From contig CAWAKC010000001.1 of the NCBI GenBank assembly GCA_963782525.1, forward strand, positions 192,001 to 256,000: DNA of 64,000 bases, read 5' to 3'. This stretch comes from Candidatus Bathyarchaeota archaeon. GTDB taxonomy: Archaea; Thermoproteota; Bathyarchaeia; Bathyarchaeales; Bathycorpusculaceae. A model generated the notes under the pieces. The model saw only the letters and a program-made list of their open reading frames with translations, ran no database searches and was not told where the DNA came from. A program made the position numbers and the translations under genes. Positions 19,934 to 54,728 of this stretch are shown piece after piece; positions within the stretch are counted from its first letter, which is position 1, and each line of letters starts with the position of its first letter.

Positions 19934-20043
19934 TGGTGCCGGGGACGGGATTCGAGCCCGCGACTTCTGGGCATAGGGCGATTGGCCCCTTTTGCACTCC
20001 AGATTATGAGTCTGGCGCCCTAGCCAGGCTAGGCTACCCCGGC
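19934..20043 (-). tRNA. tRNA-Met(CAT), elongator type, with 32-nt intron at 45/46 and encoded CCA
   Basis: GCCGGGG/CCCCGGC acceptor, CCAGA-CTCATAA-TCTGG anticodon arm, GCGGG/CCCGT T arm; 78 nt after splicing; G1-C72 and no triple G-C anticodon stem, so not initiator. Confidence 0.92.
19965..19996 (-). other. tRNA intron with relaxed bulge-helix-bulge motif
   Basis: Central helix CTGG/CCAG with bulges AG|T and AA|G; excision restores variable loop AGGTC. Confidence 0.88.
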
Positions 20044-22261: not shown

Positions 22262-22522
22262 TTACCTCAACAGCCAATAGTAGACTACAGTAATAATTAA
22301 AACCACAATAGTAAGCGCTAACGCAAACGCCACAACAGTTTTGACTGATTTTTTGTCTGTACCAAAAATTATCGGAATCGGCCCAATCATTATGACACCT
22401 GCACCCTGCACTTTACCCTTTTTGGAGCTACCAGCAGAAGCAAGAACAATCACAGCTACGATAATTATTATTCCAACAACGACCAATGCTACGCCAAGTG
22501 TATAAAAATCTGTAATATCCAC
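22262..22522 (-). CDS. DUF131/TIGR00304 family membrane protein (tandem paralog)
   Basis: AGVIMIGPIPIIFGTD. Confidence 0.8.
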   Translation of the reverse strand: MDITDFYTLGVALVVVGIIIIVAVIVLASAGSSKKGKVQGAGVIMIGPIPIIFGTDKKSVKTVVAFALALTIVVLIITVVYYWLLR

Positions 22523-38958: not shown

Positions 38959-39455
38959 ACAGCAAAATCAAAGCGCCAGCCATAAAATTCGGCAACAACA
39001 TAGACACAGACGTCATCCTACCAGGCAAATACCTAATCTTAGTTGACCCATGCGAATTAGCAAAACACGCATTGGAAAGCTTAGACACCGAATTCGTCAA
39101 CAAAGCCAAAAAAGGCGTCATATTAGTTGGCGGCAAAAACTTCGGCTGCGGCTCAAGCAGAGAGCAGGCGCCCTTAGCGTTAAAGTATTCAGGCGTCAAA
39201 TGCGTCATCGCCGAATCGTTCGCCCGCATCTTCTTCCGCAACGCAATAAACATTGGTTTACCCGTAATCGAATGCAAAGGCATATCAAGCGCGGTGGAAA
39301 CAGGCGACGAATTAGTCGTTGACTTTGAGACGGGCAAAATCGAAAACGCTTCAAACGGCAAAAAATTCCAAGTCGAAAAACTGCCACCATTCATCCTAGA
39401 AATCTTAGCTGATGACGGATTAATCGAGAACTTAAAAGGAAAGATGAAAAAATGA
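38955..39455 (+). CDS. leuD: 3-isopropylmalate dehydratase small subunit
   Basis: IDTDVILP, NFGCGSSREQA, SFARIFFRN. Confidence 0.93.
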   Translation: MNSKIKAPAIKFGNNIDTDVILPGKYLILVDPCELAKHALESLDTEFVNKAKKGVILVGGKNFGCGSSREQAPLALKYSGVKCVIAESFARIFFRNAINIGLPVIECKGISSAVETGDELVVDFETGKIENASNGKKFQVEKLPPFILEILADDGLIENLKGKMKK

Positions 39456-40489
39456 CAGAATACAAAATATCCTTAATTCCCGGCGATGGCATCGGGCCAG
39501 AATTAACCGAAGCCACCCTAAAAGTCTTAGATGCAGTTCAGAAAAAATTCGGCGTTAAACTGCAGATCATTGAAGCTGAAGCAGGCGACGTTGCCCTTGA
39601 AAGAGTAGGCGCCGCATTGCCAGCAGATACCATTGAGAAAGTTAAGAACTCCCACGCTTGCCTAAAAGGACCCGTAGGCGAATCAGCAGCAGACGTCATC
39701 GTTAAATTGCGCGTCATGTTTGACCTTTACGCTAACCTACGCCCATTAAAGGCATACCCCAACGTTCCAGTCGCCAGACCAGACATCGACATGCTCTTTG
39801 TCCGCGAAAACACTGAAGACGTCTACAAAGGCTTAGAATTCACAATCGGCGCAGACACCACCTTGTGCCTACGCGTTATCACACGAGGAAACTGCGAACG
39901 CATCGCTCACAAAGCCTTCCAAATGGCACGCCTACGCAACGGCAAAAAGAAAGTCACAGCCATTCACAAAGCCAACGTTATGCGTGTAACCGACGGTTTA
40001 TTTCGTGACGTCTGCCGCGAAGTCAGCAAAGGCTATCCCGACATCGCGTTTAACGAACTCTACGTTGACGCCGCATCCATGCGACTAATTAAAGAACCAG
40101 AAATATTCGATGTCTTCTGCACTTGCAACATGTTCGGCGACATCCTCAGCGATGAAGCCGCACAGCAAATCGGAGGCTTAGGCATGGCTCCAGGCGCAAA
40201 CGTCGGCGAAAACTTTGGATTATTCGAACCCATCCATGGCTCCGCACCAAACAGAGCAGGAAAACATACCGCCAACCCAATCTCCATGATACTTTCAGCG
40301 AAAATGATGCTGGAGTGGCTGGGAGAAAAATACGGTGACAAGAAATGCTTACAAGCAGGCGCAGCCATAGAGAACGGTGTAGTTTACGCTTTGCGTAACC
40401 GTCAATCTGTTCCAGACTGCGGCGGCACCACCACAACCGTGGGCATGGCAGAAGCTATCGCTGCAGCCCTAACTGTGAAAAGTGGCTGA
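39452..40489 (+). CDS. leuB: 3-isopropylmalate dehydrogenase
   Basis: GDGIGPE, LYANLRP, NMFGDILSD, EPIHGSAP; operon context. Confidence 0.9.
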   Translation: MTEYKISLIPGDGIGPELTEATLKVLDAVQKKFGVKLQIIEAEAGDVALERVGAALPADTIEKVKNSHACLKGPVGESAADVIVKLRVMFDLYANLRPLKAYPNVPVARPDIDMLFVRENTEDVYKGLEFTIGADTTLCLRVITRGNCERIAHKAFQMARLRNGKKKVTAIHKANVMRVTDGLFRDVCREVSKGYPDIAFNELYVDAASMRLIKEPEIFDVFCTCNMFGDILSDEAAQQIGGLGMAPGANVGENFGLFEPIHGSAPNRAGKHTANPISMILSAKMMLEWLGEKYGDKKCLQAGAAIENGVVYALRNRQSVPDCGGTTTTVGMAEAIAAALTVKSG

Positions 40490-42020
40490 AAGCATGACCA
40501 ACAAAACCTCAAAAAGCATCCGAATTTTTGACACAACCTTAAGAGACGGGGAACAAACCCCCGGAGTTTCTTTAACTGCAGACGATAAGATTGAGATAGC
40601 AGTCCAACTCAGCAAACTAGGCGTAGACGTTATTGAGGCGGGTTTTCCGAGTTCTTCTGATGGCGAAAAAAAAGTCGTCAAAGATATTGCCAACTTGGGT
40701 TTGACCTCAGAAATCTGTAGTTTATCTCGGGCAACGAGAGGAGACATTGACGCAGCAATAGCTTGTGACGTTGATTTAGTTCACGTTTTCATACCAACCT
40801 CACCAGTCCAGATGAAGTATGCAGTTAATTTGACTCCCGAACAGGTATTGGCTTCCACAGTTGATTCGGTTTCTTACGTGAAGAAGCATGGTGTAAAATG
40901 TGAGTTTTCGCCGATGGATGCCACACGTTCCGAGATGCCCTTCTTAAAACAGGTTTGTAAAGCCGCACAGGATGCAGGCATGGATAGCCTAAATGTACCT
41001 GACACCGTCGGCATCATGATTCCAAAAACCACAATAAAACTCATTGAAGAATTAAAAACCGTAGTCACCGTGCCTATAAGCACCCATTGTCATGACGACT
41101 TTGGTTTAGCTGTCGCAAACAGTCTAGCAGCGGTCGAAGCTGGCGCAGCCCAAGTGCATGTCGCCGTCAACGGCTTAGGTGAACGGGCAGGCAACGCGTC
41201 GCTAGAAGAAGTCGTGATGGCGCTGCACATTATTTACAAGTACAAAACAAACGTCAACACCCGTTTACTCTACAGCACATCGCGAATGGTTGCGTCCTTA
41301 ACTGGCATTACGGTGCAAGCTAACAAGGCAATCGTTGGCGAAAACGCCTTTGCCCACGAATCAGGCATCCACACACGCGGTGTAACAGAGAAACCGTTAA
41401 CTTTCGAACCAATAAACCCCGAATTAGTCGGCAGAACAAGAAAACTTGTCGCAGGCAAATTAGCTGGAACCCGAGGAATAAAAGCGGAACTTGAAGAAAT
41501 CGGCATCCACCCAACCGAAGAGCAACTCAAAGAAATCGTTCAACGCGTCAAAGATTTAGGCGACAAAGGCAAGATGGTCACTGATGCCGACTTGATTGCG
41601 TTGACTTCTGCTGTGATGGGTGAGGTGCTCGGTGAAGAAAAAATCATTGACTTATGCGACATGGCAGTCGTCACAGGCATCAAAGTCATTCCAACCGCTT
41701 CTGTACGCTTAATTTTAAATGGCAAAGAATACGTTGCCGCCGAAACAGGCGTGGGACCAGTAGACGCTGTTTTGAAGGCAATTCAGAAGTTGACCAGCAG
41801 CATAGAAAACATCCGCCTAAGCGAATACCGACTCGAAGCTATCACAGGCGGTTCAAACGCGGTGGCTGAAGTCGTTATAAAAGTCGAGGATGAAAAAGGC
41901 AACATCGTCAGCGCCCGAGCAGCCCGAGAAGACATCGTTATGGCATCTGTTGAAGCAATGATAAATGGCATAAACAAACTCTTGCTAAAGAACCATCAAA
42001 AGCAGGGAAACAAAAAGTGA
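40482..42020 (+). CDS. leuA: 2-isopropylmalate synthase
   Basis: FDTTLRDGEQ, EAGFP, HCHDDFG, GLGERAGN; in leu operon. Confidence 0.9.
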   Translation: MAESMTNKTSKSIRIFDTTLRDGEQTPGVSLTADDKIEIAVQLSKLGVDVIEAGFPSSSDGEKKVVKDIANLGLTSEICSLSRATRGDIDAAIACDVDLVHVFIPTSPVQMKYAVNLTPEQVLASTVDSVSYVKKHGVKCEFSPMDATRSEMPFLKQVCKAAQDAGMDSLNVPDTVGIMIPKTTIKLIEELKTVVTVPISTHCHDDFGLAVANSLAAVEAGAAQVHVAVNGLGERAGNASLEEVVMALHIIYKYKTNVNTRLLYSTSRMVASLTGITVQANKAIVGENAFAHESGIHTRGVTEKPLTFEPINPELVGRTRKLVAGKLAGTRGIKAELEEIGIHPTEEQLKEIVQRVKDLGDKGKMVTDADLIALTSAVMGEVLGEEKIIDLCDMAVVTGIKVIPTASVRLILNGKEYVAAETGVGPVDAVLKAIQKLTSSIENIRLSEYRLEAITGGSNAVAEVVIKVEDEKGNIVSARAAREDIVMASVEAMINGINKLLLKNHQKQGNKK

Positions 42021-42829
42021 AAGTATCCTACCAGGGTGAAACTGGAGCCTACAGTGAAATGGCTGTCTTCAAGTTTTTCGGCAGCAAAGTAGAGCCAGTT
42101 CCCTGCAAAGATTTCCGAGACGTTTTTGAATCCGTTAAAACAGGCGCAGTTCCTAATGGTGTGGTTCCGATTGAGAACTCTATTGAAGGCAGCGTCAACC
42201 AAAACTACGACTTATTCCTCGCTTACGACCTCAAAGTTTGCGGAGAAGTCGCAGTAAAACTTGCCCATGTCCTGATCGCTAACCCCCAAACCAAATTCGA
42301 AAACATCGAAACAGTCTACTCGCACCCCCAAGCACTAGCACAATGCCGCAGTTACCTTGAAAAACACAGATGGGAAATTATCCCCGCCTACGACACCGCC
42401 GGAGCAGTCAAAGCCATCAAAGAAAAAGGACTTTTTAACGCTGCGGCCATTGCAAGCGAAAAAGCCGCAGACCTCTACGACATGAAGATTCTTGCCCGAG
42501 ACATCGCTGATAACCCATCAAACTACACGCGATTTCTTGTCCTATCCCATGAAGATGCCGCACCAACTGGAGACGACAAAACCTCAATAATATTTTCAGC
42601 TAAACATGCTCCCGGCACCTTATACCATGCTCTTGGAGAGTTTGCATCAAGAAACATCAACCTAACAAGAATCGAATCCAGACCCACAAAAACAACTGCT
42701 TGGCAATACAACTTTTACTTGGACTTTGAGGGCCATCGAACCGAGAAACGTTGTGCAGAAGCACTGCAAGCCCTAGAAAAGTATGCGACTTTCGTGAAAA
42801 TTCTGGGATCATACCCCAGAGCAATCTAA
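42017..42829 (+). CDS. pheA: Prephenate dehydratase
   Basis: PIENSIEG, SHPQALAQC, NYTRF, ACT domain IESRP. Confidence 0.95.
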   Translation: MKVSYQGETGAYSEMAVFKFFGSKVEPVPCKDFRDVFESVKTGAVPNGVVPIENSIEGSVNQNYDLFLAYDLKVCGEVAVKLAHVLIANPQTKFENIETVYSHPQALAQCRSYLEKHRWEIIPAYDTAGAVKAIKEKGLFNAAAIASEKAADLYDMKILARDIADNPSNYTRFLVLSHEDAAPTGDDKTSIIFSAKHAPGTLYHALGEFASRNINLTRIESRPTKTTAWQYNFYLDFEGHRTEKRCAEALQALEKYATFVKILGSYPRAI

Positions 42830-43821: not shown

Positions 43822-44451
43822 TTACCGTCTCACGGTGTTTTTGTAGAAATTTTCGATTATGCAGTGACCCTCAGGATGAGTTTCGCCCTGGATCACGATG
43901 CGTTCGGGATGAAATTGGACGCCAAAGAAGGGTTTGGTTTTATGTTTGACGGCCTCTACTTCGCAGGAAACTGAATCAGCCATCAACGTGAACCCTGCGG
44001 CGTCAAGACCGCCTTTTAGGACATAGTCGTAGTGGTTTTCAGCTAAGGGCGAAGTGTGTCCTTCTTTGAACCCAGAGAAAATTTGGTCTGACTGGATAAT
44101 CCTGACTTCCTCAAACCTGCTGGCAACCTGCTTAGGAAGGGAACCCACTTCGGCGCCAAAAGCCCAGCACAGCAGTTGATGACCGAAACAAATACCCAAC
44201 AAAGGCACGCCGAAATTTCTTATAATCACCTCAACACCTTCGAATTTGGTTCTATCCGAGGATAGAACGATTCTGGCGGCAGACCCACTGAGGACAACAG
44301 CATCTATGTCATTTACTATTTGATAGTCCCGCGACATATCCCTAAAATTAGCAACTGTGCACTCGCCAAATCGGCTTATTACAGTAAATAAATCCGTGCT
44401 AACTTTGCCAGTAAACGAACAGTTGACAAGCAGAGTTTTAGTCATCGACAA
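43822..44451 (-). CDS. Class I glutamine amidotransferase
   Basis: LSGS, PLLGICFGHQ, GVQFHPE. Confidence 0.9.
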   Translation of the reverse strand: MSMTKTLLVNCSFTGKVSTDLFTVISRFGECTVANFRDMSRDYQIVNDIDAVVLSGSAARIVLSSDRTKFEGVEVIIRNFGVPLLGICFGHQLLCWAFGAEVGSLPKQVASRFEEVRIIQSDQIFSGFKEGHTSPLAENHYDYVLKGGLDAAGFTLMADSVSCEVEAVKHKTKPFFGVQFHPERIVIQGETHPEGHCIIENFYKNTVRR

Positions 44452-44453
44452 GC

Positions 44454-45326
44454 CTATTTTTCTGTTGATTCCAGCATTTTGTACATAACGTCATAGGACT
44501 CGGCGAAGTCGCTGTCGGTTTCTTTGAGCTTTTTCTTTAGCTGCTCCATACGTTCGACAATTGCTTTGGTGTCTTTGTTTTTAATTAGTGTAAGCAGTTC
44601 TTGGGCTTTAGCCATGAAAGTATCTTCGATTTTTTCGAGTTCAGGTAGGCTTGTTTGAACACTCGCATAGAGATCGGGAGTCTCCAGCGCCGTAGCTTCT
44701 GCCAAGGTGAAGAGCATTCGGTAGGTGGTGCCAGCAACTTTTTTGGTTTCAGACAAATTCTTCTGTTCGAGCAAGGTTTCACAGGCGACTAAGCCCAGAA
44801 AATGCGGCAGCCCAAGCACGACTGACATTAATTCGTCGTGTTTTTTGGGGGTCATTATGAAAACGTGTGCGTCTTCTCGCTCAAGCCACAGCTTATAATG
44901 CTCAGCTAACTCGTTCTCTTTGGAGTTTGTTGGAGTTAAAACGTAAGCTTTGTGTTTGACCCCGTTGCTTCCTGGACCGAAAACGGGATGCGTACCCAAA
45001 ACAGTTGCTTCTTTTATGTATTGGTGCATGATTTTTACGGGGGATTCTTTGATTGAGCAAATATCCATAACCACTTGCCCTTCATGCAAGACAGGGCTGA
45101 TCGTTTTAACGACCTCTTCGATGGCATTTATGGATACGCAGAGGAGAACCTGGTCAGCATCCGCCACTGCTTCCTCGAAGTTTGTAGTTAAATCAACGAG
45201 GAGGGCTTTTTGTTTTTCAAGTTTCGCTTTTTTTCTATCCGCTAAAATAACGTCGTAACCTTTAGACTGAAAGAAATCGGCGAACCAAACGCCCATCTTG
45301 CCAGCCCCGATTACGGCGATTTTCAT
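44454..45326 (-). CDS. tyrA: Prephenate dehydrogenase
   Basis: GAGKMG, DICSIK, HPVFGP, HDELMS. Confidence 0.93.
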   Translation of the reverse strand: MKIAVIGAGKMGVWFADFFQSKGYDVILADRKKAKLEKQKALLVDLTTNFEEAVADADQVLLCVSINAIEEVVKTISPVLHEGQVVMDICSIKESPVKIMHQYIKEATVLGTHPVFGPGSNGVKHKAYVLTPTNSKENELAEHYKLWLEREDAHVFIMTPKKHDELMSVVLGLPHFLGLVACETLLEQKNLSETKKVAGTTYRMLFTLAEATALETPDLYASVQTSLPELEKIEDTFMAKAQELLTLIKNKDTKAIVERMEQLKKKLKETDSDFAESYDVMYKMLESTEK

Positions 45327-46405
45327 TGCTTTGCTGCCTCACAGATTTTATCAAGTCCAACCTCGATTTCGTTGTCTGGCGCAGTTAGGGAGATGCGAAA
45401 GTGCTCGCGGTAATCGCCAAATGCGGTGCCTGGAGCCACAGCTACGCCTTTGTCGAGCAGGTTTAGAGTATATTTTTCGCTGTCTAAACCGTCGAGTTTC
45501 GGGAACACGTAGAAGGGAGCGTCGGGTTTGGTAAATTTGAAGCCTGCCGCCGAGAGCTTAACACTTGCAAGGTCTGCCCGTTTTTTGTATTTGGCTTTAA
45601 TTTTGGATGCAATTTGCTTATGCAGTTCTAACCCTTTGAGAGCTGCGTCTTGGATAAAGACCGGTACGTTATTGATGGTGATTTGGTTGAGTTTAGTTAT
45701 TTGGTCGATTAACATTTTGTTTGCGATTAAGTAGCCTATGCGCCAGCCGGTCATAGTGAAGGTTTTAGAAAAGCCATTTGAGAGGATGTGTTTGCATTCG
45801 CCGTCGTAGTCGAGGATACTTTTAGTTTTCACAAAGCTGATTGCGCCATAAACCTCGTCGGAGAGTATGGTTACTCCTTTTTTGTTGGCTAACTTGACTA
45901 TGCCGTCGAGGGTTTTAGTATCCATGACTTTGCTGGTGGGGTTGTTTGGGTTATTGAGGATAATCATTTTGGTTTCATTGTCAATTAATGCATCGAGCTT
46001 GGCGAGGTCAATTTTCCAGCCGTCTTCCATTTCGGTTCGCAGCAGCTGGGTTTTGGCTCCGAAGCTTTTCGCGATTAAATCGTAAGCTGTCCAGTACGGC
46101 GTGGGAATTATGACGTTGCCGCCGTTTTTAAGCATCAAAAACATCGTGGCGAATATGCCCCATTTTGAACCCGGAGTAATAACCACGTTTTCTGCTTTAA
46201 CGCCGTGGCCCTCAGCGATTTTCTGACGCAATTTAAGCTCGCCATAGGAAGAGGAATACTTGGTTTTTCCGGACTTCATAGAAGCGTATGCAGCTTCTAC
46301 GATTTCGGGCGGCGTAGCCATGTCTGGGTCGCCAAGGTTTAATCGAATTATCTTTTTTCCTTCACTTTCCAATTTGAGGGCTTTCTCGTTTATCTCGTAG
46401 AGCAT
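45323..46405 (-). CDS. PLP-dependent class I/II aminotransferase (probably aromatic)
   Basis: NPNNPT, SDEVY, SKTFTMTGWRIG. Confidence 0.92.
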   Translation of the reverse strand: MLYEINEKALKLESEGKKIIRLNLGDPDMATPPEIVEAAYASMKSGKTKYSSSYGELKLRQKIAEGHGVKAENVVITPGSKWGIFATMFLMLKNGGNVIIPTPYWTAYDLIAKSFGAKTQLLRTEMEDGWKIDLAKLDALIDNETKMIILNNPNNPTSKVMDTKTLDGIVKLANKKGVTILSDEVYGAISFVKTKSILDYDGECKHILSNGFSKTFTMTGWRIGYLIANKMLIDQITKLNQITINNVPVFIQDAALKGLELHKQIASKIKAKYKKRADLASVKLSAAGFKFTKPDAPFYVFPKLDGLDSEKYTLNLLDKGVAVAPGTAFGDYREHFRISLTAPDNEIEVGLDKICEAAKQ

Positions 46406-46433
46406 ACAGGTTTGGACTCTCCGTTAGAGCGCT

Positions 46434-46694
46434 TTATTCTTGAACAGCACTGCACATATTAACTATTTCGCGGTAAACCGCTTCAACGTGCCCAGCGGCA
46501 AGACCCAATTCAGCCCCTTTTGCCCGTATCCGCTTGAAAACTTCGTTCTCTCTGGAGAGGTCGCGGACTGGTTTTCCCTGCTTTTTCTTCGCAGCGCCAA
46601 TTGCCTTACAAGTTTTAACACGCTCGCAGAGAGCGGTTAAGATTTGGTCGTCGATTTCATCCACGTTTTTTCTGAGCTTTGGGATTTCAGTCAT
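46434..46694 (-). CDS. Chorismate mutase type II (AroQ)
   Basis: LRKNVDEIDDQIL...ER...IG..K...D.SRE. Confidence 0.9.
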   Translation of the reverse strand: MTEIPKLRKNVDEIDDQILTALCERVKTCKAIGAAKKKQGKPVRDLSRENEVFKRIRAKGAELGLAAGHVEAVYREIVNMCSAVQE

Positions 46695-46695
46695 G

Positions 46696-47799
46696 TTAAT
46701 GCTCCTTGAGGACCTTGGGGATGTAACCTGAACGGATCAGGTGGTCAGCTAAAGTTATTGCAGCGGCTGTTTCGATGGCGGGCACCGCCTTGGGTACGAC
46801 ACAGGGGTCGTGTCTGCCCTTAACGCTTATTGAGGCTTCTTCCATTGAGGAGAGGTTAACGGTTTTCTGTTCTTTAGCAATAGACGGCGTAGGCTTAATC
46901 GCCACACGAATCATAATTGGCATACCGCTGGATAAACCGCCCAAGATGCCTCCTGCGTTCTCCGTGGAAGTTATGATCTTCCCGTTCTTGAGCAGAAAAG
47001 CGTCGTTGTTCTGTGAACCAGTCAACTCAGTAGCCCTAAACCCAGCGCCAAACTCAACACCCTTTACAGCGGGAACACTAAACAATGCTTTCGCTAAATC
47101 AGCATCCAATGAATCAAACAATGGCTCGCCAATTCCTGCTGGCATGTTTAGTGCAATGCATTCTATGACTCCGCCCAAACTTTCGCCTTCTTTTCGAGCA
47201 TTCACGATGGCTTCCTCCATTTTTTCTGCGCATGCCAAGTCGGGGCACCTTGTTGCAGCCGCATTTTTGTTTTTGCGGATTTCTGCTGCACTGAATTTTT
47301 TGTCGGTTCTAATTTTCCCTATCGATTGGGTATAAGCTAAAACATCGATGTCGTATCTTCCGAGAAGTTTTTTTGCTATGGTTCCAGCCATGATTAGGGC
47401 GACGGTAACTCTGCCTGAGAAGCGTCCGCCGCCTCGGTAATCGTTGAAGCCGCCGTATCGGATGCGGGCGGGGTAGTCGGAGTGGCCGGGGCGTGGCAAG
47501 TCTTTAATGTCTTCATAATCACTTGAGTTAGTTTCTTTGTTCTCAACTGTCAAAGCGATTGGAGCACCAGTCGTGAACCCATTAAATAATCCGCTGAGAA
47601 TCTTAACAATGTCCTTCTCGATACGGGCAGAAACAATTTTGGGCTCCGCTGGAATCCTACGGTCAAGCTCTTCCTGAAAATCTGCTTCTGAGAGCGGCAA
47701 TCCAGCTGGGCAACCGTCTACGACTACGCCAACGACTTTGCCGTGACTCTCACCAAACGTGGTAACTACGAATTCTTTACCTATCGAATTTCCCGCCAA
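46696..47799 (-). CDS. aroC: Chorismate synthase
   Basis: FGESHG, RPGHSD, KPTPSI, GRHDPC. Confidence 0.97.
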   Translation of the reverse strand: MAGNSIGKEFVVTTFGESHGKVVGVVVDGCPAGLPLSEADFQEELDRRIPAEPKIVSARIEKDIVKILSGLFNGFTTGAPIALTVENKETNSSDYEDIKDLPRPGHSDYPARIRYGGFNDYRGGGRFSGRVTVALIMAGTIAKKLLGRYDIDVLAYTQSIGKIRTDKKFSAAEIRKNKNAAATRCPDLACAEKMEEAIVNARKEGESLGGVIECIALNMPAGIGEPLFDSLDADLAKALFSVPAVKGVEFGAGFRATELTGSQNNDAFLLKNGKIITSTENAGGILGGLSSGMPIMIRVAIKPTPSIAKEQKTVNLSSMEEASISVKGRHDPCVVPKAVPAIETAAAITLADHLIRSGYIPKVLKEH

Positions 47800-49075
47800 C
47801 TAAGTTAGCTCCTAATTGTTTTAGATGAGTGAAGAACTGCGGATAAGACTTTCTGACGCACTCAGCGTTCTGAATAGTGGTTTCTCCTTCAGCGCCAAGT
47901 GCAGCGACAGCGCATGCCATGGCGATTCGATGATCATTATGCGGGTCAATCATGGCTCCGTGCAGACGCCGTCCGCCTTCAACGATTAACCCATCTTCGG
48001 TAGCGCTGATGTCGGCACCCATTTTTCCCAGTTCGACATAGAGCGATTGAAGTCTATCAGACTCCTTGAGCCTGAGCCTATTTGCTCCAAAAATGTGCGA
48101 TGTACCCTCTGCGTAACATGCAAGGGCTGCGATTGCGGGAACAAGATCAGGAATATTCTTAGCATCCACTTCTAAGGGTTTGAGTAACCTGCCTAAGCCT
48201 TCGATTTCAATGCTGTCTGCGCAAACTTTCCCGTTGACGCCCATATGCTTGAGGAAGCCCATTATGGATTTGTCGCCTTGAACGCTGCTGTATTCAAGGT
48301 TGTTTATTTGAACTTTCGAGGTGGTTATTGCCGCCGCAACAAGAAGAAAAGCAGCTGAAGAGAAATCGCCCGGAACCCTTCCGTCCGCTGGATTGTAGCT
48401 TTGGCCTACTGGAATATGAATGTGATTTTCATGTGCAGGAACCTTAATTCCATGGTCAGCAAGAACTGCCTCAGTCATTTTGACGTAATCCTCAGACTCC
48501 AACGGCGAAGTTAACGTTATTTCAGTATCCACTTGAGCATTTGGGCAAGCAAACATCAACCCTGAAATGAATTGTGAACTTACATCGCCGGGAATGGATG
48601 TTTCGCCTCCAACGATGCCGCCGCCCTCCACGAAAACGGCGTCTTTGTCACCGAATTTTCCAACATGTACTTTGGCACCGAGTTCACTGAGGCTTGCCAA
48701 TAATGGTTCTACGGGTCGCTTCTCGATTGAACCTCTAAACACCAATGTTGAAGGACCCTTTGCCAGAGCAGCCATGGGTATCATGAAACGCAATGTGGCA
48801 CCCGATTCTCCGCAGTCAATTGGCTCTTTTGCACCTTTAAGCTTCAATGCTCCTTGGATTGTCCAGCAACCGTCAGCAGTCGTGACTTTTGCACCCAAAG
48901 CTTTGACAGCACGCAGGGTGGCTTCTGTATCCTCCGATAATAGGGGATTAGATATTTTGGAGGAACCAGCCGAAAGAGCAGCGGCAATAATCATCCTCTG
49001 AGTATAAGACTTAGACGGTGGAGCACAAACTTGACCACTTAACTGTCCAGTTTTCTTAACAATTACGTCTACCAT
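47777..49075 (-). CDS. aroA: 3-phosphoshikimate 1-carboxyvinyltransferase
   Basis: PPSKS, GESGATLRF, SSQFIS, KESDR, DHRIAM, KSYPQF. Confidence 0.96.
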   Translation of the reverse strand: MVDVIVKKTGQLSGQVCAPPSKSYTQRMIIAAALSAGSSKISNPLLSEDTEATLRAVKALGAKVTTADGCWTIQGALKLKGAKEPIDCGESGATLRFMIPMAALAKGPSTLVFRGSIEKRPVEPLLASLSELGAKVHVGKFGDKDAVFVEGGGIVGGETSIPGDVSSQFISGLMFACPNAQVDTEITLTSPLESEDYVKMTEAVLADHGIKVPAHENHIHIPVGQSYNPADGRVPGDFSSAAFLLVAAAITTSKVQINNLEYSSVQGDKSIMGFLKHMGVNGKVCADSIEIEGLGRLLKPLEVDAKNIPDLVPAIAALACYAEGTSHIFGANRLRLKESDRLQSLYVELGKMGADISATEDGLIVEGGRRLHGAMIDPHNDHRIAMACAVAALGAEGETTIQNAECVRKSYPQFFTHLKQLGANLVGGKFDR

Positions 49076-49947
49076 ACTATTGCACCTTGGGCTTTTTTGC
49101 AATTTATTTGTGTCTGCAAGATTTCGCCTTCATACTTTTGCAGTGCAGCCTTTACAGAATCGACTTTATCCTTGGGAACCACCGCGGTTACGCCGGGTCC
49201 TTTGCCGCAGAGCCCAGACGCCACCGCTCCAGCAGCCAATGCGTCGATAGCTATTGCGGTGTTGAAGTTGGAGGCTGAAGAGTAGATTAAGCCGTTGATG
49301 GTCAGGGCTTCCCAAACTTTCCCTTCCAAAGCCTTTTCGAAAGCGATTTCCACGAGGGGTTTAACGGATTTGAGCCGGTTTATATGGGAGTCGATGGTGT
49401 AGGCTTTTTGGGGTGGCACATGGAAGAGAACCTTCAAATCCTCATTCAGCGGCATTTGCTTGATTAGTTCCCGTTTTAGGTTATCGGTGATGACTATGCC
49501 GCCAAAATAGGAAGCACAAGCATCATCAAACGCACCTGTAACCGTAACTTTGGCATCAAAAGCCGCTTCAACACCTATGTTGATGATTTCTAAGTCGCTG
49601 AGCTTTTTGCCCAGTGCCGTTGTGGTGGCTAGTGCAGTTGCATTTGCGGCTGCGCTACTACTTTTGAGCCCCCTTGCGATGGGAATGTTTGAAGTGGTTT
49701 TTACTTTCACGCCAAAACTTTTCTCTAAATTGAACAGTTGCAGAACTCGGGTTACGGTTTTTTCTATGAGGAGCGTGCTTTCAGTGGGGTCAGAAGCTAT
49801 CTCAGTTCTGATAACGCCTGGTTCATCAGTTAATTTGACTTCAGCTTTAGTCCACAAATCAACCCCAAACGCGGCGCCTTTTCCCAGGGCAATCGCGTTC
49901 ACGATCGTTGCAGCCCCATGAACAACAGCCACAGCTTTCCCAGTCAC
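49069..49947 (-). CDS. aroK: Archaeal (GHMP-type) shikimate kinase
   Basis: IVNAIALGKG, IPIARGLKSSSA, TGAFDDACAS. Confidence 0.95.
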   Translation of the reverse strand: MTGKAVAVVHGAATIVNAIALGKGAAFGVDLWTKAEVKLTDEPGVIRTEIASDPTESTLLIEKTVTRVLQLFNLEKSFGVKVKTTSNIPIARGLKSSSAAANATALATTTALGKKLSDLEIINIGVEAAFDAKVTVTGAFDDACASYFGGIVITDNLKRELIKQMPLNEDLKVLFHVPPQKAYTIDSHINRLKSVKPLVEIAFEKALEGKVWEALTINGLIYSSASNFNTAIAIDALAAGAVASGLCGKGPGVTAVVPKDKVDSVKAALQKYEGEILQTQINCKKAQGAIVW

Positions 49948-49949
49948 AA

Positions 49950-50807
49950 TTACACCTTCTGCAAATGATTAAGCGCTGCCTGCCTCATAACTTCAACGGG
50001 AGCAGACTTCCCCGTCCAGATTTCAAATGATGCCGCACCTTGATAAATCAACATCTCAACTCCGCTGACGACTTTGGCGCCTGCGGCTTTGGCGTCTTTT
50101 GCTAGTTGGGTTTCGATTGGATTGTAAACGATGTCTATTACTGCCAAATTGGGTCCTATCAGCTTAGGCGGAATTAGGCTTTCGTCGGGTTTGGGTTTCA
50201 TCCCAACGGATGTTGCGTTGATTAGGATGTCTGAGTCTTGGAGGTTGTGCTGTATTTCCTTTGGCGAGAGGGCGCCTGAAACTATTTTCTTGTTAGCGGT
50301 CTTTTCCAGCAGTTTAGCTAATTCTTGGGCTGGTTTTAGGGTTCGGTTCAAAACTGCCAGCTCGTCGGATTCTCGGGCCATCGTGTAAGCTATGGCTCTT
50401 GCCGCTCCTCCTGCGCCAAGCAACAGAATTTTCCTACCTTTGGGTTCCACATCGTTTTCCCTTAAGGCTTTTAGTGCGCCGACTCCATCGGTGTTAAAGC
50501 CAAAAAGCTTGCCGTCCCGATTTAAGATGGTATTAACTGAGTTAATTATTTGCGCGGATAAATCTACTCGGTCTAAATATTTCAGGATTGAACTTTTATG
50601 TGGCATGGTAACGTTTAGCCCTCTTATGTTCAGGGCGCGCATGCCGTTCACCGCGTTTTCCAGTCCTACAGGCTTCACCTTGAATGCTAAAAATGTGTAG
50701 TCGAGTTTGAGGGCTTGAAAAGCTGCATTATGCATTATTGGGCTTAAGGTGTGTTCTATCGGGTCGCCGATGACTCCGCAAACACGTGTTTTCCCCGTTA
50801 TAACCAT
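49950..50807 (-). CDS. aroE: Shikimate dehydrogenase
   Basis: LSPIMHN, NVTMPHK, NTDG, GAGGAARA, MLIYQG. Confidence 0.96.
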   Translation of the reverse strand: MVITGKTRVCGVIGDPIEHTLSPIMHNAAFQALKLDYTFLAFKVKPVGLENAVNGMRALNIRGLNVTMPHKSSILKYLDRVDLSAQIINSVNTILNRDGKLFGFNTDGVGALKALRENDVEPKGRKILLLGAGGAARAIAYTMARESDELAVLNRTLKPAQELAKLLEKTANKKIVSGALSPKEIQHNLQDSDILINATSVGMKPKPDESLIPPKLIGPNLAVIDIVYNPIETQLAKDAKAAGAKVVSGVEMLIYQGAASFEIWTGKSAPVEVMRQAALNHLQKV

Positions 50808-50808
50808 G

Positions 50809-51492
50809 CTACTTTACCCCTAAAAGACCGTAAGCAGTCCTCATTTCACCTATGCTCATCTGGCCAGCGGCGGTTTCACTTCCATTTTCCAGAGAAGCGA
50901 AAGTAAAGAATGCCCCAAACATTGGCGAGAGAAGCCTTGAAACCTTACCATGTTCACCCATGCAGAAACAAACCAGTTTACCTTTGCTGGATGCAAAAGA
51001 AACAAAACCTAGAACCGGAAGGTTGTCTTCTACATGGTTGGCGGTTGTCACAATCTTGCAAATGCTCGCTCTACTGGCAAGCTCCTTATCAAGAACATCC
51101 TCCATAGCTGTAACGCTGAGTGCACCGTCGAATTTGTGATATGAAACGATTGGTTTAGCCCCCAACTGCTTAAGTTGGCTGATTGTTTCTATATGTTTTG
51201 GGCTTGATAAGTTAACGTCAACATATTCAAAACCGCTCTTGGCAGCAAAAAGTAGTGTTTGTTGCCATTCAATCTCTGTGCCCGAGAAGTATCCCTTTTC
51301 GCTTTGAAGTTTGTTAGCGGCTATTAAAGGGATTTTTGTACTCGCCGTTATGTCTGATAATTTTCTGGAAATTTCAAGCCAATCCAGTCGGACCTCAATA
51401 AAGTCTGCTTTGGCTTTCTCTGCCTTCTCAATTAGATTTAATGCTTCTATGTTGTTTTTTGGGAGAATCGAAACGCAGATTCTCGCGGTCAC
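50809..51492 (-). CDS. aroD: 3-dehydroquinate dehydratase type I
   Basis: EVRLD, IVSYH, KIV, MGEHGKVSR, TAAGQ. Confidence 0.92.
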   Translation of the reverse strand: MTARICVSILPKNNIEALNLIEKAEKAKADFIEVRLDWLEISRKLSDITASTKIPLIAANKLQSEKGYFSGTEIEWQQTLLFAAKSGFEYVDVNLSSPKHIETISQLKQLGAKPIVSYHKFDGALSVTAMEDVLDKELASRASICKIVTTANHVEDNLPVLGFVSFASSKGKLVCFCMGEHGKVSRLLSPMFGAFFTFASLENGSETAAGQMSIGEMRTAYGLLGVK

Positions 51493-52499
51493 TTTTCAAT
51501 CACCGTTTCTTCTGGCACAGATATGCCGAAGTGTCGTCCTCCCTTCGCAGCTAAATGTACGATGACTTCGTCGTTGGGTTTGAGTTCGGTGACTGGTTTT
51601 GAGGCTGTTGGTGTGACTAAGCGTATGGTTTCGGCGTTTTGGAGTATGGTTTTTATTAATTTGCCTTCGACCTGTGCCTCTACTAGAATGAGAGGTCGGA
51701 TTTCAATTTTTATGCGTCCCACGTTGGTCGTTCGGGTTTTGCCTTCGCGGTTGACGATTATGACTTCGTCGCCTGCTTTGAATTCTTGGAGGTACCTTGT
51801 AGTTTGTAAATTGCCCAAAGTATACATCGATAATGTCCCGGCATTGACTCTGAAGGGACGTGAGGCAACGTAAGGGTTCTCGTTAACTTCTGCTTCGATC
51901 AGGAATAAACCTGCGCTTTGGCTTCCAACTAGCATACCTTCGCCCTGCTTCATCAACTCGCATGTGTCTACACAGACCCGAGCGCCGGTGCCGATGGGTT
52001 TTGTGGAGACGATTTTGGCGATTGCCATTTCCAGCTGTAGGGCTTCTGGCTTCACTATGGCGATGGTTTTTAGGAGCTCCTCTGGATTTGAAGTCTTGAG
52101 CAACACGCCATCGGTTCCTAACTCGAGCGTTTCAAGCGCCACTTTCGCTTCTTCAGCGTTGATGACTTCAGCTATAATCTTGCTCTTCCCTTTAACACGG
52201 GCAATCAAGTTTTCAAGAGGAATAACACGCCAATTCGCACAACTGATAAGCAAGTAACTTGCACCAGCCTCCGCTACTTTAACGGTTAAGTTCTCAGTTG
52301 ACTTGTCACTTAGACAGATTCTTGCAACCTTCTTCGTCACATCCAACTTTTGAGAATCTACCGATGGAGAGACAACTTTTAGGCTTTGTTTGTTTGCCAG
52401 AAAAGTGGTTTTGTCCCCTTCAACGATTGCATCAGCGTATTGGTTAACAAGTGTGGATAGGGCTTCTTTGTTTTCGGTTTCTACCCAAAGTTCCTTCAA
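51489..52499 (-). CDS. aroB': 3-dehydroquinate synthase II (AroB')
   Basis: WRVIPLENLIA, RVCVDTC, RPFRVNAG, LQNAETI, GRHFG. Confidence 0.94.
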   Translation of the reverse strand: MKELWVETENKEALSTLVNQYADAIVEGDKTTFLANKQSLKVVSPSVDSQKLDVTKKVARICLSDKSTENLTVKVAEAGASYLLISCANWRVIPLENLIARVKGKSKIIAEVINAEEAKVALETLELGTDGVLLKTSNPEELLKTIAIVKPEALQLEMAIAKIVSTKPIGTGARVCVDTCELMKQGEGMLVGSQSAGLFLIEAEVNENPYVASRPFRVNAGTLSMYTLGNLQTTRYLQEFKAGDEVIIVNREGKTRTTNVGRIKIEIRPLILVEAQVEGKLIKTILQNAETIRLVTPTASKPVTELKPNDEVIVHLAAKGGRHFGISVPEETVIEK

Positions 52500-53287
52500 C
52501 GCTTTTCACCAAGAAACTTAAGCGCCTGCTCCACAGACGCGTTTTCATGAACGATCGCTGAAAGTGACTTTGACAATAGTGTTGGTTTGTCGCATTGGAA
52601 TATATTTCGCCCGATTGAAAGACCTGCAGCCCCTGCTTTCATGGCGTCAGCGGTGGTTTGCAGGATTTCCTCTAAGGTTTTGCACTTTGGTCCTCCAGCG
52701 ATGACGACTGGCACTGGACAGCTTTCGGTAACTGTTTTGAAACTATCTATGCTGCCTGTGTAGTTTGTTTTAATGATGTCTGCGCCAAGTTCAGCGCCGA
52801 TTCGGGCAGCATGAGCAACAACGTTTACGTCGTGTTCATTCGGTATTTTTGGTCCCCGCGGATACATCATAGCTAAAAGCGGCATCCCGAAAACGTCACA
52901 TTCGTCGGCAACTTTGCCGAGGTTGTGTAGCATTTTGTCTTCATCCTGCGAACCGACGTTAACATGGACACTAACGGCATCTGCGCCGACTCGTATGGCG
53001 CCTTGAACGCTGCAGACTTGGACTTTTCCGTTTAAGTTGGGGCTAAGATTCGACATGCCAGAGAGCATTACAATTAAGCCAGCGTTTTCAACGTCAACTT
53101 GTTTGGCTATGCCCTTGTGGACAAGGATAGCGTCGACTTTGCCCTTTACTAGTTGATCAATGATTTGCTGCATGTTGGTTATGCCTTGGATGGGTCCGAC
53201 GGTGACGCCGTGATCCATAGGCACGATTACTGTGTGGTTGTCTTTTTGCATGATTCTTCTTAGTCTACGGGTTTTTCCTGAATTCAT
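52496..53287 (-). CDS. aroA': 2-amino-3,7-dideoxy-D-threo-hept-6-ulosonate synthase (AroA', class I aldolase)
   Basis: PMDHG, AMMYPRG, ELGADIIKT, AGG, GRNIFQ; adjacent to aroB'. Confidence 0.9.
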   Translation of the reverse strand: MNSGKTRRLRRIMQKDNHTVIVPMDHGVTVGPIQGITNMQQIIDQLVKGKVDAILVHKGIAKQVDVENAGLIVMLSGMSNLSPNLNGKVQVCSVQGAIRVGADAVSVHVNVGSQDEDKMLHNLGKVADECDVFGMPLLAMMYPRGPKIPNEHDVNVVAHAARIGAELGADIIKTNYTGSIDSFKTVTESCPVPVVIAGGPKCKTLEEILQTTADAMKAGAAGLSIGRNIFQCDKPTLLSKSLSAIVHENASVEQALKFLGEKR

Positions 53288-53297
53288 CTTTTTCCAC

Positions 53298-54533
53298 CTA
53301 GTGTGTTTTAAGCGAGTTTTTAATTAACTTTAATGCCTTTTCTTTATCATTCCAATCTACAAACAACAAAATACTTGAGGTGATAGTGAGGATACCTGAG
53401 ATGTTTATGCCGTTAACTCGCAGGTCTTCGCTGATTTTGCCGATGATGCCGTGGGTTTCTTCCAATCCGACTCCGCTGGTCTTGAGAAAGACAAGATCTT
53501 TTTTCACAGCCATAGCTATGGTTTCTTTGTTGCTTATGGTTATTTTGTGGATTTGGTTGAAAAGTGTATCGATGTTTTTTTCCTGGGGAACGTAGAGGAT
53601 GATTGAATTAGTGTTCATGGACATGCCGAGAAGCATAGAGTTTTCTTTGACTTTCTCAACCATTTCTGTAACGACTTGTGGGTTGGCTGATATGCCGTTT
53701 CCAATCACAGTTATCTCTGAGACGGGGGTAGGATGAGCGATTTCAACATCAAGCTCTGAGGCTAAACTGCCTTTAATTAGGGTGCCTGCCCTGCTCAAAT
53801 CGCTATGTGCATTGCTGATTACTTTAACGTCTATGTCTTTGGGTTTGTACTTGAGGGCTTTGCTATGAATGAATTTAGCGCCTGAATCTGCTAACCCAAC
53901 AAGTGTGGTTACGTCGGTTTCTGGGAGCAGTTTGGGGGACGCAATGATTTTGGGGTCGCCGGACATAATGCCGTCGGCATCTGTTACCAATACTACTTGG
54001 TTTGCGTTGATTCCCTGTGCGATTATGAATGCGGTGGTGTCGCTTCCGCCTCTGCCCAAAGTGGTGATTTTTCCATCTTTGGTTTTGCCCACGAAACCCG
54101 CTATTACGGGTATTGTGCCTTTTTCGACGAGTGGTAGGATGCATTCTTTGATGTTTTTGTCGCATTCTTTGAGGATTGGGTTGGCGTTTTGGAAGGAGTC
54201 GTCGGTGATTATTGGCCATTTGTTATCCATGGGGTCGAAGTAGCATGCGTCGACACCATTGTTTCTCAAGGCTGCGGCGAATATGCGTACGCTGGTGCGT
54301 TCACCCATGGAGAGGATGTCGTCTAATTCGTGTTTCTGGAGTTTTCCGTTCGAAGTGTTTTTGGCGGTGGTCATGAGGACATCGGTTGTTTTGCCCATAG
54401 CGGAGACTACGACGGCGATTTTAGTGCCTTTTTTAGCTTCATTAACAACAGCAACTACCGCTTTGAGGAGTCTCTCATGGTCAGCGAGGCTAGAGCCACC
54501 GAATTTAACAACTATAGTTTTGCTAGTTTGCAT
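53298..54533 (-). CDS. lysC: Aspartate kinase
   Basis: VVKFGGSS, VVSAMG, TTLGRGGSD, DPK; C-terminal ACT-like domains. Confidence 0.92.
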   Translation of the reverse strand: MQTSKTIVVKFGGSSLADHERLLKAVVAVVNEAKKGTKIAVVVSAMGKTTDVLMTTAKNTSNGKLQKHELDDILSMGERTSVRIFAAALRNNGVDACYFDPMDNKWPIITDDSFQNANPILKECDKNIKECILPLVEKGTIPVIAGFVGKTKDGKITTLGRGGSDTTAFIIAQGINANQVVLVTDADGIMSGDPKIIASPKLLPETDVTTLVGLADSGAKFIHSKALKYKPKDIDVKVISNAHSDLSRAGTLIKGSLASELDVEIAHPTPVSEITVIGNGISANPQVVTEMVEKVKENSMLLGMSMNTNSIILYVPQEKNIDTLFNQIHKITISNKETIAMAVKKDLVFLKTSGVGLEETHGIIGKISEDLRVNGINISGILTITSSILLFVDWNDKEKALKLIKNSLKTH

Positions 54534-54552
54534 TTAGGTACCCCCGTTTTTC

Positions 54553-54590
54553 GCCCAGAACTATTCTCAAAAAATTTGTTAGTTCTGGGC
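54553..54590 (-). promoter_or_regulatory. Leader hairpin (putative attenuator)
   Basis: Perfect 11-bp arms GCCCAGAACTA/TAGTTCTGGGC, 16-nt loop containing T6, between leader stop and GGGGGT SD. Confidence 0.75.
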
Positions 54591-54677
54591 TTATGGAAAA
54601 TGGTAATAATAAAAATAGTAGTCGAAGCTAGGAAACAGTGACGCAGTGATGTTGATTTTGTTTTTTGCGTTGAGCAT
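54591..54677 (-). CDS. Putative Tyr/Phe-rich leader peptide (28 aa)
   Basis: MLNAKNKINITASLFPSFDYYFYYYHFP*; 9 of last 14 codons Phe/Tyr; first ORF after the operon promoter. Confidence 0.78.
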   Translation of the reverse strand: MLNAKNKINITASLFPSFDYYFYYYHFP

Positions 54678-54710
54678 TGCTTCGAACCTGCCAATCAGTT
54701 CATCTTCCAA

Positions 54711-54728
54711 AAAATATAAGCGTTTCGG
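54711..54728 (-). promoter_or_regulatory. BRE/TATA promoter of the lysC-aro operon
   Basis: CCGAAACG-CTTATATTTT ~35 nt upstream of the leader ATG. Confidence 0.65.

Follow-up and report, generated by a model that had tools for sequence, protein, structure and literature searches.

Leader-peptide attenuation, a textbook form of gene control, depends on ribosomes that move behind RNA polymerase along the nascent transcript, and it is described as bacterial; archaea, too, couple transcription and translation. Attenuators of the pheL, trpL and hisL type use an intrinsic terminator and a mutually exclusive antiterminator, the choice between them being controlled by the position of the ribosome on a short leader open reading frame (ORF). 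In the translational attenuation of ermC and cat genes, a stalled leader ribosome remodels a hairpin at the downstream ribosome-binding site (RBS); the stall is caused by a drug together with the nascent peptide, and the Shine-Dalgarno (SD) sequence lies inside the hairpin. Archaeal aromatic and trp genes are subject to control by proteins such as TrpY, which acts by DNA-binding repression at the promoter. According to the available part of a report on mycobacteria (10.1101/834739), ribosomes stall on the clustered cognate codons of polycysteine leaderless short ORFs and thereby block structures that sequester the next RBS, and the accessible text of another source (PMC8429421) describes the Escherichia coli TnaC leader peptide, which controls the downstream genes through the presence of a ribosome at the end of its ORF. 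The subject of the present analysis is a region upstream of an aromatic amino acid (aro) operon on the minus strand of a 64,000-nucleotide (nt) stretch of DNA from a Candidatus Bathyarchaeota archaeon (GCA_963782525.1, contig CAWAKC010000001.1, positions 192,001 to 256,000), referred to below as the window. There, a 28-codon ORF ending in a run of Tyr and Phe codons is directly followed by a hairpin. Judged from its sequence, the region is probably a leader through which ribosomes sense Tyr and Phe, and thus in a broad sense of the term an attenuator, for the aromatic amino acid operon of a Bathyarchaeia archaeon.

The elements named by the first-pass annotation of this DNA, namely a BRE/TATA-like element (BRE, transcription factor B recognition element), the 28-codon ORF, the hairpin, the SD and the ATG of a kinase gene, were all located on the minus strand where it had placed them. 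The leader ORF, MLNAKNKINITASLFPSFDYYFYYYHFP (54591..54677, with its ATG at 54677), consists of 28 codons and a TAA stop codon (54593-54591), and its C-terminal end reads FPSFDYYFYYYHFP; the aromatic tract, from codon F15 to P28 (54594..54635), holds four Phe and five Tyr in the final 14 residues. The hairpin, here called P2 (54553..54590), has as its first base the base after the stop codon, and its arms GCCCAGAACTA (54590-54580) and TAGTTCTGGGC (54563-54553) make a perfect stem of 11 base pairs (bp) closing a 16-nt loop with AAA and then six T (54574-54569); its fold energy in the window is -16.6 kcal/mol. P2 does not include the SD of the following gene, GGGGGT (54540..54545), which comes 7 nt after the hairpin (spacer GAAAAAC) and 6 nt before the ATG at 54533 that opens the first gene of the operon, an aspartate kinase gene (53298..54533).

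Two further elements complete the leader region. Just 5' of the leader ATG lies an A-box, GGTTCGAAGC (54679..54688), the 5' arm of a helix, P1, predicted by RNAalifold; it includes an AGGU-like putative RBS of the leader itself. The 3' arm of P1, the B-box GCTTCGACT (54620..54628), falls within the aromatic tract and comprises the codons Ser-Phe-Asp and the first base of a Tyr codon. Upstream of the A-box, the BRE/TATA-like element CCGAAACG-CTTATATTTT (54711..54728) may act as the promoter. The block CGAAACGCTTATATTT recurs with the same spacing 5' of the leader in most of the same-genus loci inspected (no formal count), a few of which carry variants of it, such as GAAATGCTTATAT, and from this conserved position the transcript would start about 12 nt 5' of the leader ATG. 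One 206-nt contig from an RNA library covers 54523-54728, the presumed TATA box included, and may therefore represent DNA or read-through. Seventeen RNA sequencing runs each contained only 5-8% of the sampled words, and contigs from four of these runs over the kinase gene are 90-96% alike and thus derive from relatives; such contigs do not reveal where transcripts begin or end, or how abundant they are.

The anatomy just described recurs, in frame, across many families. The search for it was confined to the window's phylum, where an orthologue of the kinase is present in 23 of 24 other genomes of the genus, 97 of 301 sampled genomes of the class and 71 of 401 sampled genomes of the phylum. A first set of 27 loci (24 from the same genus and three from two other families) was later extended by 63 loci from across the class and 20 from other classes, and a uniform summary was made of 108 orthologous loci in 25 families of the phylum. 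Three loci with less than 300 nt of upstream sequence (L012, L029 and L092) were excluded from that summary, although L012 and L029 nevertheless show the leader, and so were L002, L003 and L030-L032, which are paralogous kinases and not the aro-linked orthologue. Since the genomes are related and do not form independent samples, the number of families weighs more than the number of loci.

A leader-equivalent ORF of 24-29 codons, with a fast-changing N-terminus and an aromatic tail, is found in all 27 loci of the first set, and the tail pattern S-F-[DEG]-Y-x-F-Y-Y is kept across family f1, to which the window belongs. Among the 108 loci, 77 have at least six Phe, Tyr or Trp in the last 12 residues and 87 have at least five; at least one locus with six or more is found in 16 of the 25 families, some of which belong to other classes. 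The combination of at least five aromatic residues with a hairpin abutting the stop codon (-10 kcal/mol or stronger, starting within -3 to +9 nt of the stop) occurs in 79 of the 108 loci, that is, in 79 of the 87 that have the five residues, while as a control the same permissive hairpin search was positive at 31 of 120 random stops of upstream ORFs (uORFs) of this genome. Tails such as FFDFFYYYFYFE, PYYYYYYYCFF and FGYFYFYYFGP have no nucleotides alignable to the window; the nucleotide sequences of tail and hairpin are unrelated between families, the N-termini differ too, and the leaders of some other families also contain Trp. What stays constant between families is an in-frame ATG, an aromatic run that extends to the stop, a hairpin at the stop and a G-rich SD soon after the hairpin. 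The last aromatic codon lies 0-2 codons from the stop in every tabulated locus with at least five aromatic residues, and in the relatives the hairpin mostly ends 8-22 nt before the start codon, which places the SD about 0-10 nt behind it. The in-frame conservation of Phe and Tyr codons that the first-pass annotation had expected in relatives thus holds in relatives that range from members of the genus to other classes of the phylum. Judged by these comparisons the feature is genuine and conserved, and it is ancient within this phylum of archaea; its in-frame turnover is the pattern to be expected under selection for translating Phe/Tyr(/Trp) codons that keep a fixed spacing to a structure.

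Within the genome itself (an assembly of 2.87 Mb in 12 contigs, with 43% G+C), the leader ranks tenth for single-residue-class enrichment among 2598 ATG-started uORFs of 8-45 codons, and the ORFs that outrank it are trinucleotide repeats or stand before unrelated genes. When the most aromatic uORF was taken from each upstream region, by a rule identical for the genome background and the relatives, at least six Phe, Tyr or Trp in the last 12 residues were reached in 16 of the genome's own 1154 upstream regions and at least eight in two, of which the aro locus is one. A repeat or mobile element was considered and rejected: 9-mers of the hairpin arms and of the P1 boxes occur 10 and 15 times genome-wide, against about 11 expected. 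No known leader family matches either, as Rfam cmscan of the whole window at gathering thresholds gave one tRNA only. That tRNA (19937-20043, minus strand, 107 nt, 55.7 bits) is probably an archaeal tRNA bearing an intron; ARAGORN found no tRNA in the window.

The most residue-enriched uORFs of the genome are rich in a Cys/Gln repeat, Met, His, Thr/Ile or Phe. The genes after them encode a tRNA methyltransferase, a GDPD protein, a periplasmic-binding protein, an OB-fold protein and an Endo_dU protein, or are ORFs without a family, and none is the cognate biosynthetic gene. Some examples may be singled out. A second Phe/Tyr-rich uORF, MKYYFDFYYF, lies outside the window (L035 2532-2564, minus strand), 124 nt before a 102-residue ORF without a Pfam family, and neither a clear hairpin after it nor a recognisable downstream gene was found. 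At 22392-22505 on the plus strand of the window, a uORF contains the Thr/Ile-rich stretch TITATIIIIPTTTNAT; the gene 85 nt downstream of it encodes an OB-fold protein of the RPA/tRNA_anti-codon type and does not belong to Thr or Ile biosynthesis. On one strand a trinucleotide repeat (L036, at G000 C3:320800-324500, L037 and L041) gives 10 Cys in a row and on the other a poly-Gln ORF (MQLQQQ...), and similar MQLQQQ... ORFs are found at two additional places in the genome. The neighbouring genes are a GCD14-type tRNA methyltransferase and family-less ORFs.

The earlier proposal of a Phe/Tyr-rich leader and hairpin before an archaeal aro operon is supported. The first gene of the operon matches the aspartate kinase model NF005159 with 382.8 bits, against a cut-off of 379, and carries the Pfam AA_kinase and ACT domains. 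The remainder of the operon (43822..53287, minus strand) continues with 2-amino-3,7-dideoxy-D-threo-hept-6-ulosonate (ADH) synthase (TIGR01949), 3-dehydroquinate (DHQ) synthase II, aroD, aroE and an archaeal GHMP shikimate kinase. These are followed by a 5-enolpyruvylshikimate-3-phosphate (EPSP) synthase-like and a chorismate synthase-like gene (both named from their translations alone, with no profile scan), chorismate mutase, an aminotransferase and prephenate dehydrogenase, and a GATase-like ORF is also part of the operon. The archaeal aromatic route begins at aspartate semialdehyde, which explains why an aro operon should open with an aspartate kinase gene of its own. By its gene content the operon belongs to the archaeal aspartate-semialdehyde/6-deoxy-5-ketofructose 1-phosphate (DKFP) pathway and is predicted to yield chorismate, prephenate and Tyr; the match between these products and the codons of the leader counts in favour of Tyr/Phe sensing. 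Prephenate dehydratase (pheA) is encoded outside the aro operon, at 42017-42829 on the plus strand, as the end of a leuB-leuA-pheA string (39452-42829, plus strand) in which it overlaps the end of a 2-isopropylmalate/citramalate synthase-like gene, itself preceded by an isopropylmalate dehydrogenase-like gene. Phe synthesis thus appears to be linked with a leu-type operon, which is convergent with the aro operon, the leu-type names coming from translations with no profile scan.

The alignment of 46 family-f1 leaders gave, with RNAalifold, exactly two helices, P1 and P2. P1 pairs the A-box with the Ser-Phe-Asp codons that open the aromatic tract, and 95% of the cells of its main helix are paired in the 46 sequences. 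Over 20 specified pairs, 91.8% of 916 cells are standard pairs, compared with 28-45% when the partners are slid. In P2, three of the 11 pairs show compensatory double changes (15 cells; none of 500 shuffles reaches that), and the sequence of this hairpin is wholly different in other families. P1 is predicted from energy and conservation and not from covariation; if the TATA box is real, this helix would sit at the 5' end of the transcript and, after transcription of the tail, would close off the region where the leader itself starts. Pairing and accessibility were calculated for 73 loci, restricted to those with at least five aromatic residues and excluding L063 and L064 because of the hairpin parse. 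In these, pairing between leader start and tail exceeds that of codon-shuffled tails (6.5 against 2.8 expected pairs) and is higher in 56 of 73 loci. A P1-equivalent helix of different sequence is found in L027. In family f30, a P1-like helix between the region just 5' of the leader start and Asp-Phe-Phe codons was seen by eye, and an ensemble calculation gave it 0.3-2.5 pairs. An internal promoter in the AT-rich loop of P2 was rejected as a general feature, the loops being GC-rich in other families.

The position of P2 between the leader and the first gene invites comparison with transcription attenuation of the bacterial type, a mechanism that would make P2 all or part of a premature terminator, with an antiterminator chosen when the ribosome stalls. 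For archaeal polymerases oligo-T can be a sufficient termination signal, and a T-run of at least five lies inside the hairpin in 31 of the 46 f1 loci (at least four in 38 of 46), where in the P2 loop it is preceded by an A-run able to pair with it. A T-run of at least four after the hairpin is seen in 10 of 31 loci outside the f1 core, for example L086 and L097, and a P1 helix that closes the leader start would suit a single co-transcriptional decision. Additionally, this mechanism can draw on families f58 and f62 from other classes (L155-L159), which offer three mutually exclusive segments of a kind that the window's own family does not have. Their leaders end in F-G-P before the stop, with GGT CCC codons that repeat the 3' arm of the hairpin, so that by eye the end of the tail and the two hairpin arms could form alternative pairs as a three-segment switch. 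A C/U-rich segment abuts the SD in these two families, again by eye, and in L155 the 3' arm runs into CCTC-TTCG-GGGTGG beside the start.

Against this mechanism stands the sequence after the hairpin, which has no T-run longer than three within 14 nt in any of the 46 f1 loci, the window included. The loop T-run, to which the first-pass annotation had drawn attention, is not constant either: 15 of the 46 loci lack a run of five or more inside the hairpin, and L026, L051 and L062 have at most two T. Folding the 46 f1 sequences with RNAalifold while either P2 arm, the tail or the P1 arm was masked yielded no new conserved helix and no antiterminator, and a terminator/antiterminator switch of the trp/pheL type is thus not seen in f1 loci. 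Moreover, a single hairpin would give the inverted logic, since a slow ribosome would leave the hairpin free to form and starvation would increase termination. Transcription attenuation is unlikely. The missing T-run, the missing alternative helix and the wrong sign with a single hairpin together favour an output at translation initiation of the kinase gene over transcription termination, and this output is proposed tentatively.

The modelled accessibility of the kinase RBS is compatible with such an output. The mean unpaired fraction is 0.40 for the naked RNA and 0.48, 0.50 and 0.46 with the A site of a ribosome at -5 codons, at -2 codons and at the stop, respectively, as compared with 0.45 in control genes; at -2 codons it goes up in 49 of 73 loci. 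A comparison of the fold with and without a ribosome footprint had been suggested by the first-pass annotation. By eye, the design seems plainer in some other lineages: besides the C/U-rich segment at the SD of f58 and f62, the 3' arm of the hairpin in family f5 is an anti-SD-like CU-rich run beside GGAGGTG.

The following course of events is proposed for the Tyr/Phe leader. Sensing by slow decoding of Tyr and Phe codons is proposed because the anatomy implies it, while the output step does not follow from the anatomy; leader translation, charged-tRNA sensing, the direction of the response and the output are what we infer from the arrangement of the elements. Transcription would begin about 12 nt before the leader ATG, and the 28-codon leader would be translated. 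When charged tRNA-Tyr or tRNA-Phe is scarce, the ribosome would slow down on the nine aromatic codons among the last 14. Held on the tail, it would keep the 3' arm of P1 and the U-rich tail from pairing, and on the last codons it would also open the GC-rich foot of P2, beside the SD. When Tyr and Phe are ample, the ribosome would finish and leave, P1 would shut the leader start region, P2 would re-form and expression of the operon would drop.

Several observations weigh against this interpretation, and the first of them concern the RNA. The first-pass annotation had the last codons of the leader pairing with the SD region. The minimum-energy fold of the window gives only 4 bp there (UACC:GGUA), a tail:SD helix is absent from the consensus of the 46 f1 leaders, and tail:RBS pairing amounts to 5.7 expected pairs against 5.6 with the tail codons shuffled (33 of 73 loci exceed the shuffle), so that it is compositional only. 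Covarying stems, which had also been suggested as a test, are seen at three pairs of P2 and not in P1, which varies on one side only, with no compensatory changes, and whose 3' arm doubles as coding sequence. The modelled effects of the ribosome on the RBS are small and mixed, 12 of 73 loci reversing direction at -2 codons, and the probability of a fully open SD core is about zero in every ribosome state, equally in 80 control genes (Mann-Whitney p = 0.12), which means that this measure cannot discriminate. The last Tyr codon of the window lies three codons before the stop, so that a Tyr-starved ribosome, if its footprint is like that of bacterial ribosomes, would barely reach P2.

Another set of such observations comes from the leaders themselves. 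Families f26 (7 of 7 loci, L068-L074) and f35 (6 of 6, L076-L081) have no aromatic-rich tail. At the equivalent place, 60-170 nt upstream of the aro-linked kinase, they carry a different conserved short ORF, which encodes M-G-D-x-L-F-G-D-G-V-Y... in all seven f26 loci and ...F-G-G-H-(L/I)-Y-G-..-W or M-G-G-H-L-Y-W-H in the six f35 loci. These peptides have one Phe, one Tyr and sometimes a Trp, with conserved Gly, Asp and His, and the ORF may represent a version of the leader that acts by arrest or is constrained at the RNA level. The third positions of TTT-TAT-TAT codons are also near-invariant across the 46 f1 species, whose kinases are 65-100% identical; this suggests a codon-specific or RNA-level constraint beyond amino acid identity and is not explained by the proposed model.

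An alternative would be a nascent-peptide arrest of the TnaC type, in which the peptide, from within the exit tunnel, would detect free aromatic amino acid and stop the ribosome on or close to the stop codon, the occupied base of the hairpin then altering downstream expression. Conservation that extends beyond the aromatic residues would agree with it, as in S-F-[DEG]-Y-x-F-Y-Y in f1 and G-D-x-L-F-G-D-G-V-Y in f26, and so would the many leaders that end in Pro before the stop (FP in the window's clade, GP in f58 and f62) and a stop codon that abuts or falls within the base of the hairpin. However, between families the tails share composition and not a motif, as codon sensing predicts, and in many leaders the last residue is not Pro but N, E, T, S, F or Y. 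Arrest by the peptide is very unlikely.

A further point against Tyr/Phe sensing is that no comparable leader was found before the other amino acid genes of the genome, where the first-pass annotation had suggested looking for them; the scan used crude ORF calls and ATG starts only, and on the same ATG-start scan no Trp-rich upstream ORF was found before trpE. The same result can be read in favour of an ORF that is not a sensor at all, either encoding a small functional aromatic peptide or serving translational coupling or reinitiation, with the hairpin as a protein-binding or stabilising element. In bacteria, as proposed in the available part of one source (PMC4833913), a leader ORF near a gene can raise the translation of that gene by reinitiation, and this would fit a non-sensor ORF as well. 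The stem GCCCAG...CTGGGC is almost invariant across f1 and f7, beyond what pairing needs, which would suit a bound protein or stabilising element and is left unexplained by the sensing model. Speaking against a non-sensor ORF, the composition fits the pathway products and is the sole property common to all families, and the N-termini are unconstrained. The loop lengths of the f1 hairpins vary widely, contrary to what a dimeric DNA operator would show, and stop and start are separated by 43-82 nt with a stable hairpin between them, a poor arrangement for simple reinitiation. A non-sensor ORF is very unlikely.

With regard to the literature, an archaeal operon whose leader is rich in codons for its own end product was not found in full-text searches, which returned bacterial and eukaryotic systems only and largely left subscription journals outside. 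The available text of a 2021 review of archaeal coupling has no word beginning with 'attenuat' (PMC8116511), and a 2025 commentary names attenuation, in the part available, only among the roles shown for coupling generally (PMC13681488). Ribosome profiling (Ribo-seq) studies of Haloferax and Methanosarcina go no further, in their accessible portions, than to call small ORFs of the 5'-untranslated region (UTR) 'reminiscent' of leader peptides or potential uORFs (PMC10117724, PMC11456600), and the accessible text of PMC2965389 mentions archaea in its reference list only. On a narrow balance of probabilities, the aro leader would be the first amino-acid-responsive, ribosome-mediated leader-peptide attenuator in Archaea, old and widespread in Bathyarchaeia and other classes of the phylum, with a two-helix design of its own and family-specific versions that include a possible arrest peptide in two families poor in Phe, Tyr and Trp.

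If this is true, the sensing of charged tRNA through the speed of the ribosome is not a bacterial speciality. The locus, together with at least 77 loci in 16 families, would provide a concrete and testable case in which natural variants act as a mutational series. Annotation would gain from it as well, since the leader ORFs are too short for gene callers, and the leaders point to the supply of Tyr and Phe as a regulated quantity in uncultured Bathyarchaeia.

Among the known systems, control of the TrpY type shares the regulatory goal with the aro leader and differs from it in that TrpY acts at promoter DNA. As in the bacterial pheL-pheA, trpL and hisL attenuators, the promoter is separated from the first biosynthetic gene by a short leader ORF, in which codons for the end products cluster right to the end and which is flanked and followed by RNA helices. 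Unlike in those systems, the host is an archaeon, there are only two conserved helices, no U-run follows the hairpin of the window and no antiterminator was found in the f1 alignment; the hairpin extends from the stop codon to a point 7 nt short of the SD, and the window has no Rfam match to a leader. The aro leader thus resembles a leader-peptide attenuator at its sensing end, while the terminator and the antiterminator, two defining features of bacterial transcription attenuators, are not seen in it. With ermC and cat it shares a leader ORF with a stall tract upstream of the gene and a hairpin next to the RBS, whereas the stall proposed here would come from a shortage of charged tRNA and the SD lies just outside the hairpin.

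TnaC has in common with many of these leaders a Pro before the stop. It senses free Trp and induces a catabolic operon via Rho, whereas the operon here is biosynthetic and the trait shared among its leaders is codon composition. The mycobacterial polycysteine ORFs, as far as the available part of that report describes them, likewise sense the supply of an amino acid through stalling in a short ORF, and their output mechanism is the one tentatively favoured here. They differ from the aro leader in belonging to another domain of life and in the amino acid concerned; the leader described here would have a short 5' UTR with P1 as a closing helix, and folding does not demonstrate sequestration of its RBS. 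By this analogy, and within what that part of the report covers, the mycobacterial polycysteine short ORF would be the closest mechanistic precedent for the Tyr/Phe leader of the Bathyarchaeia aro operon.

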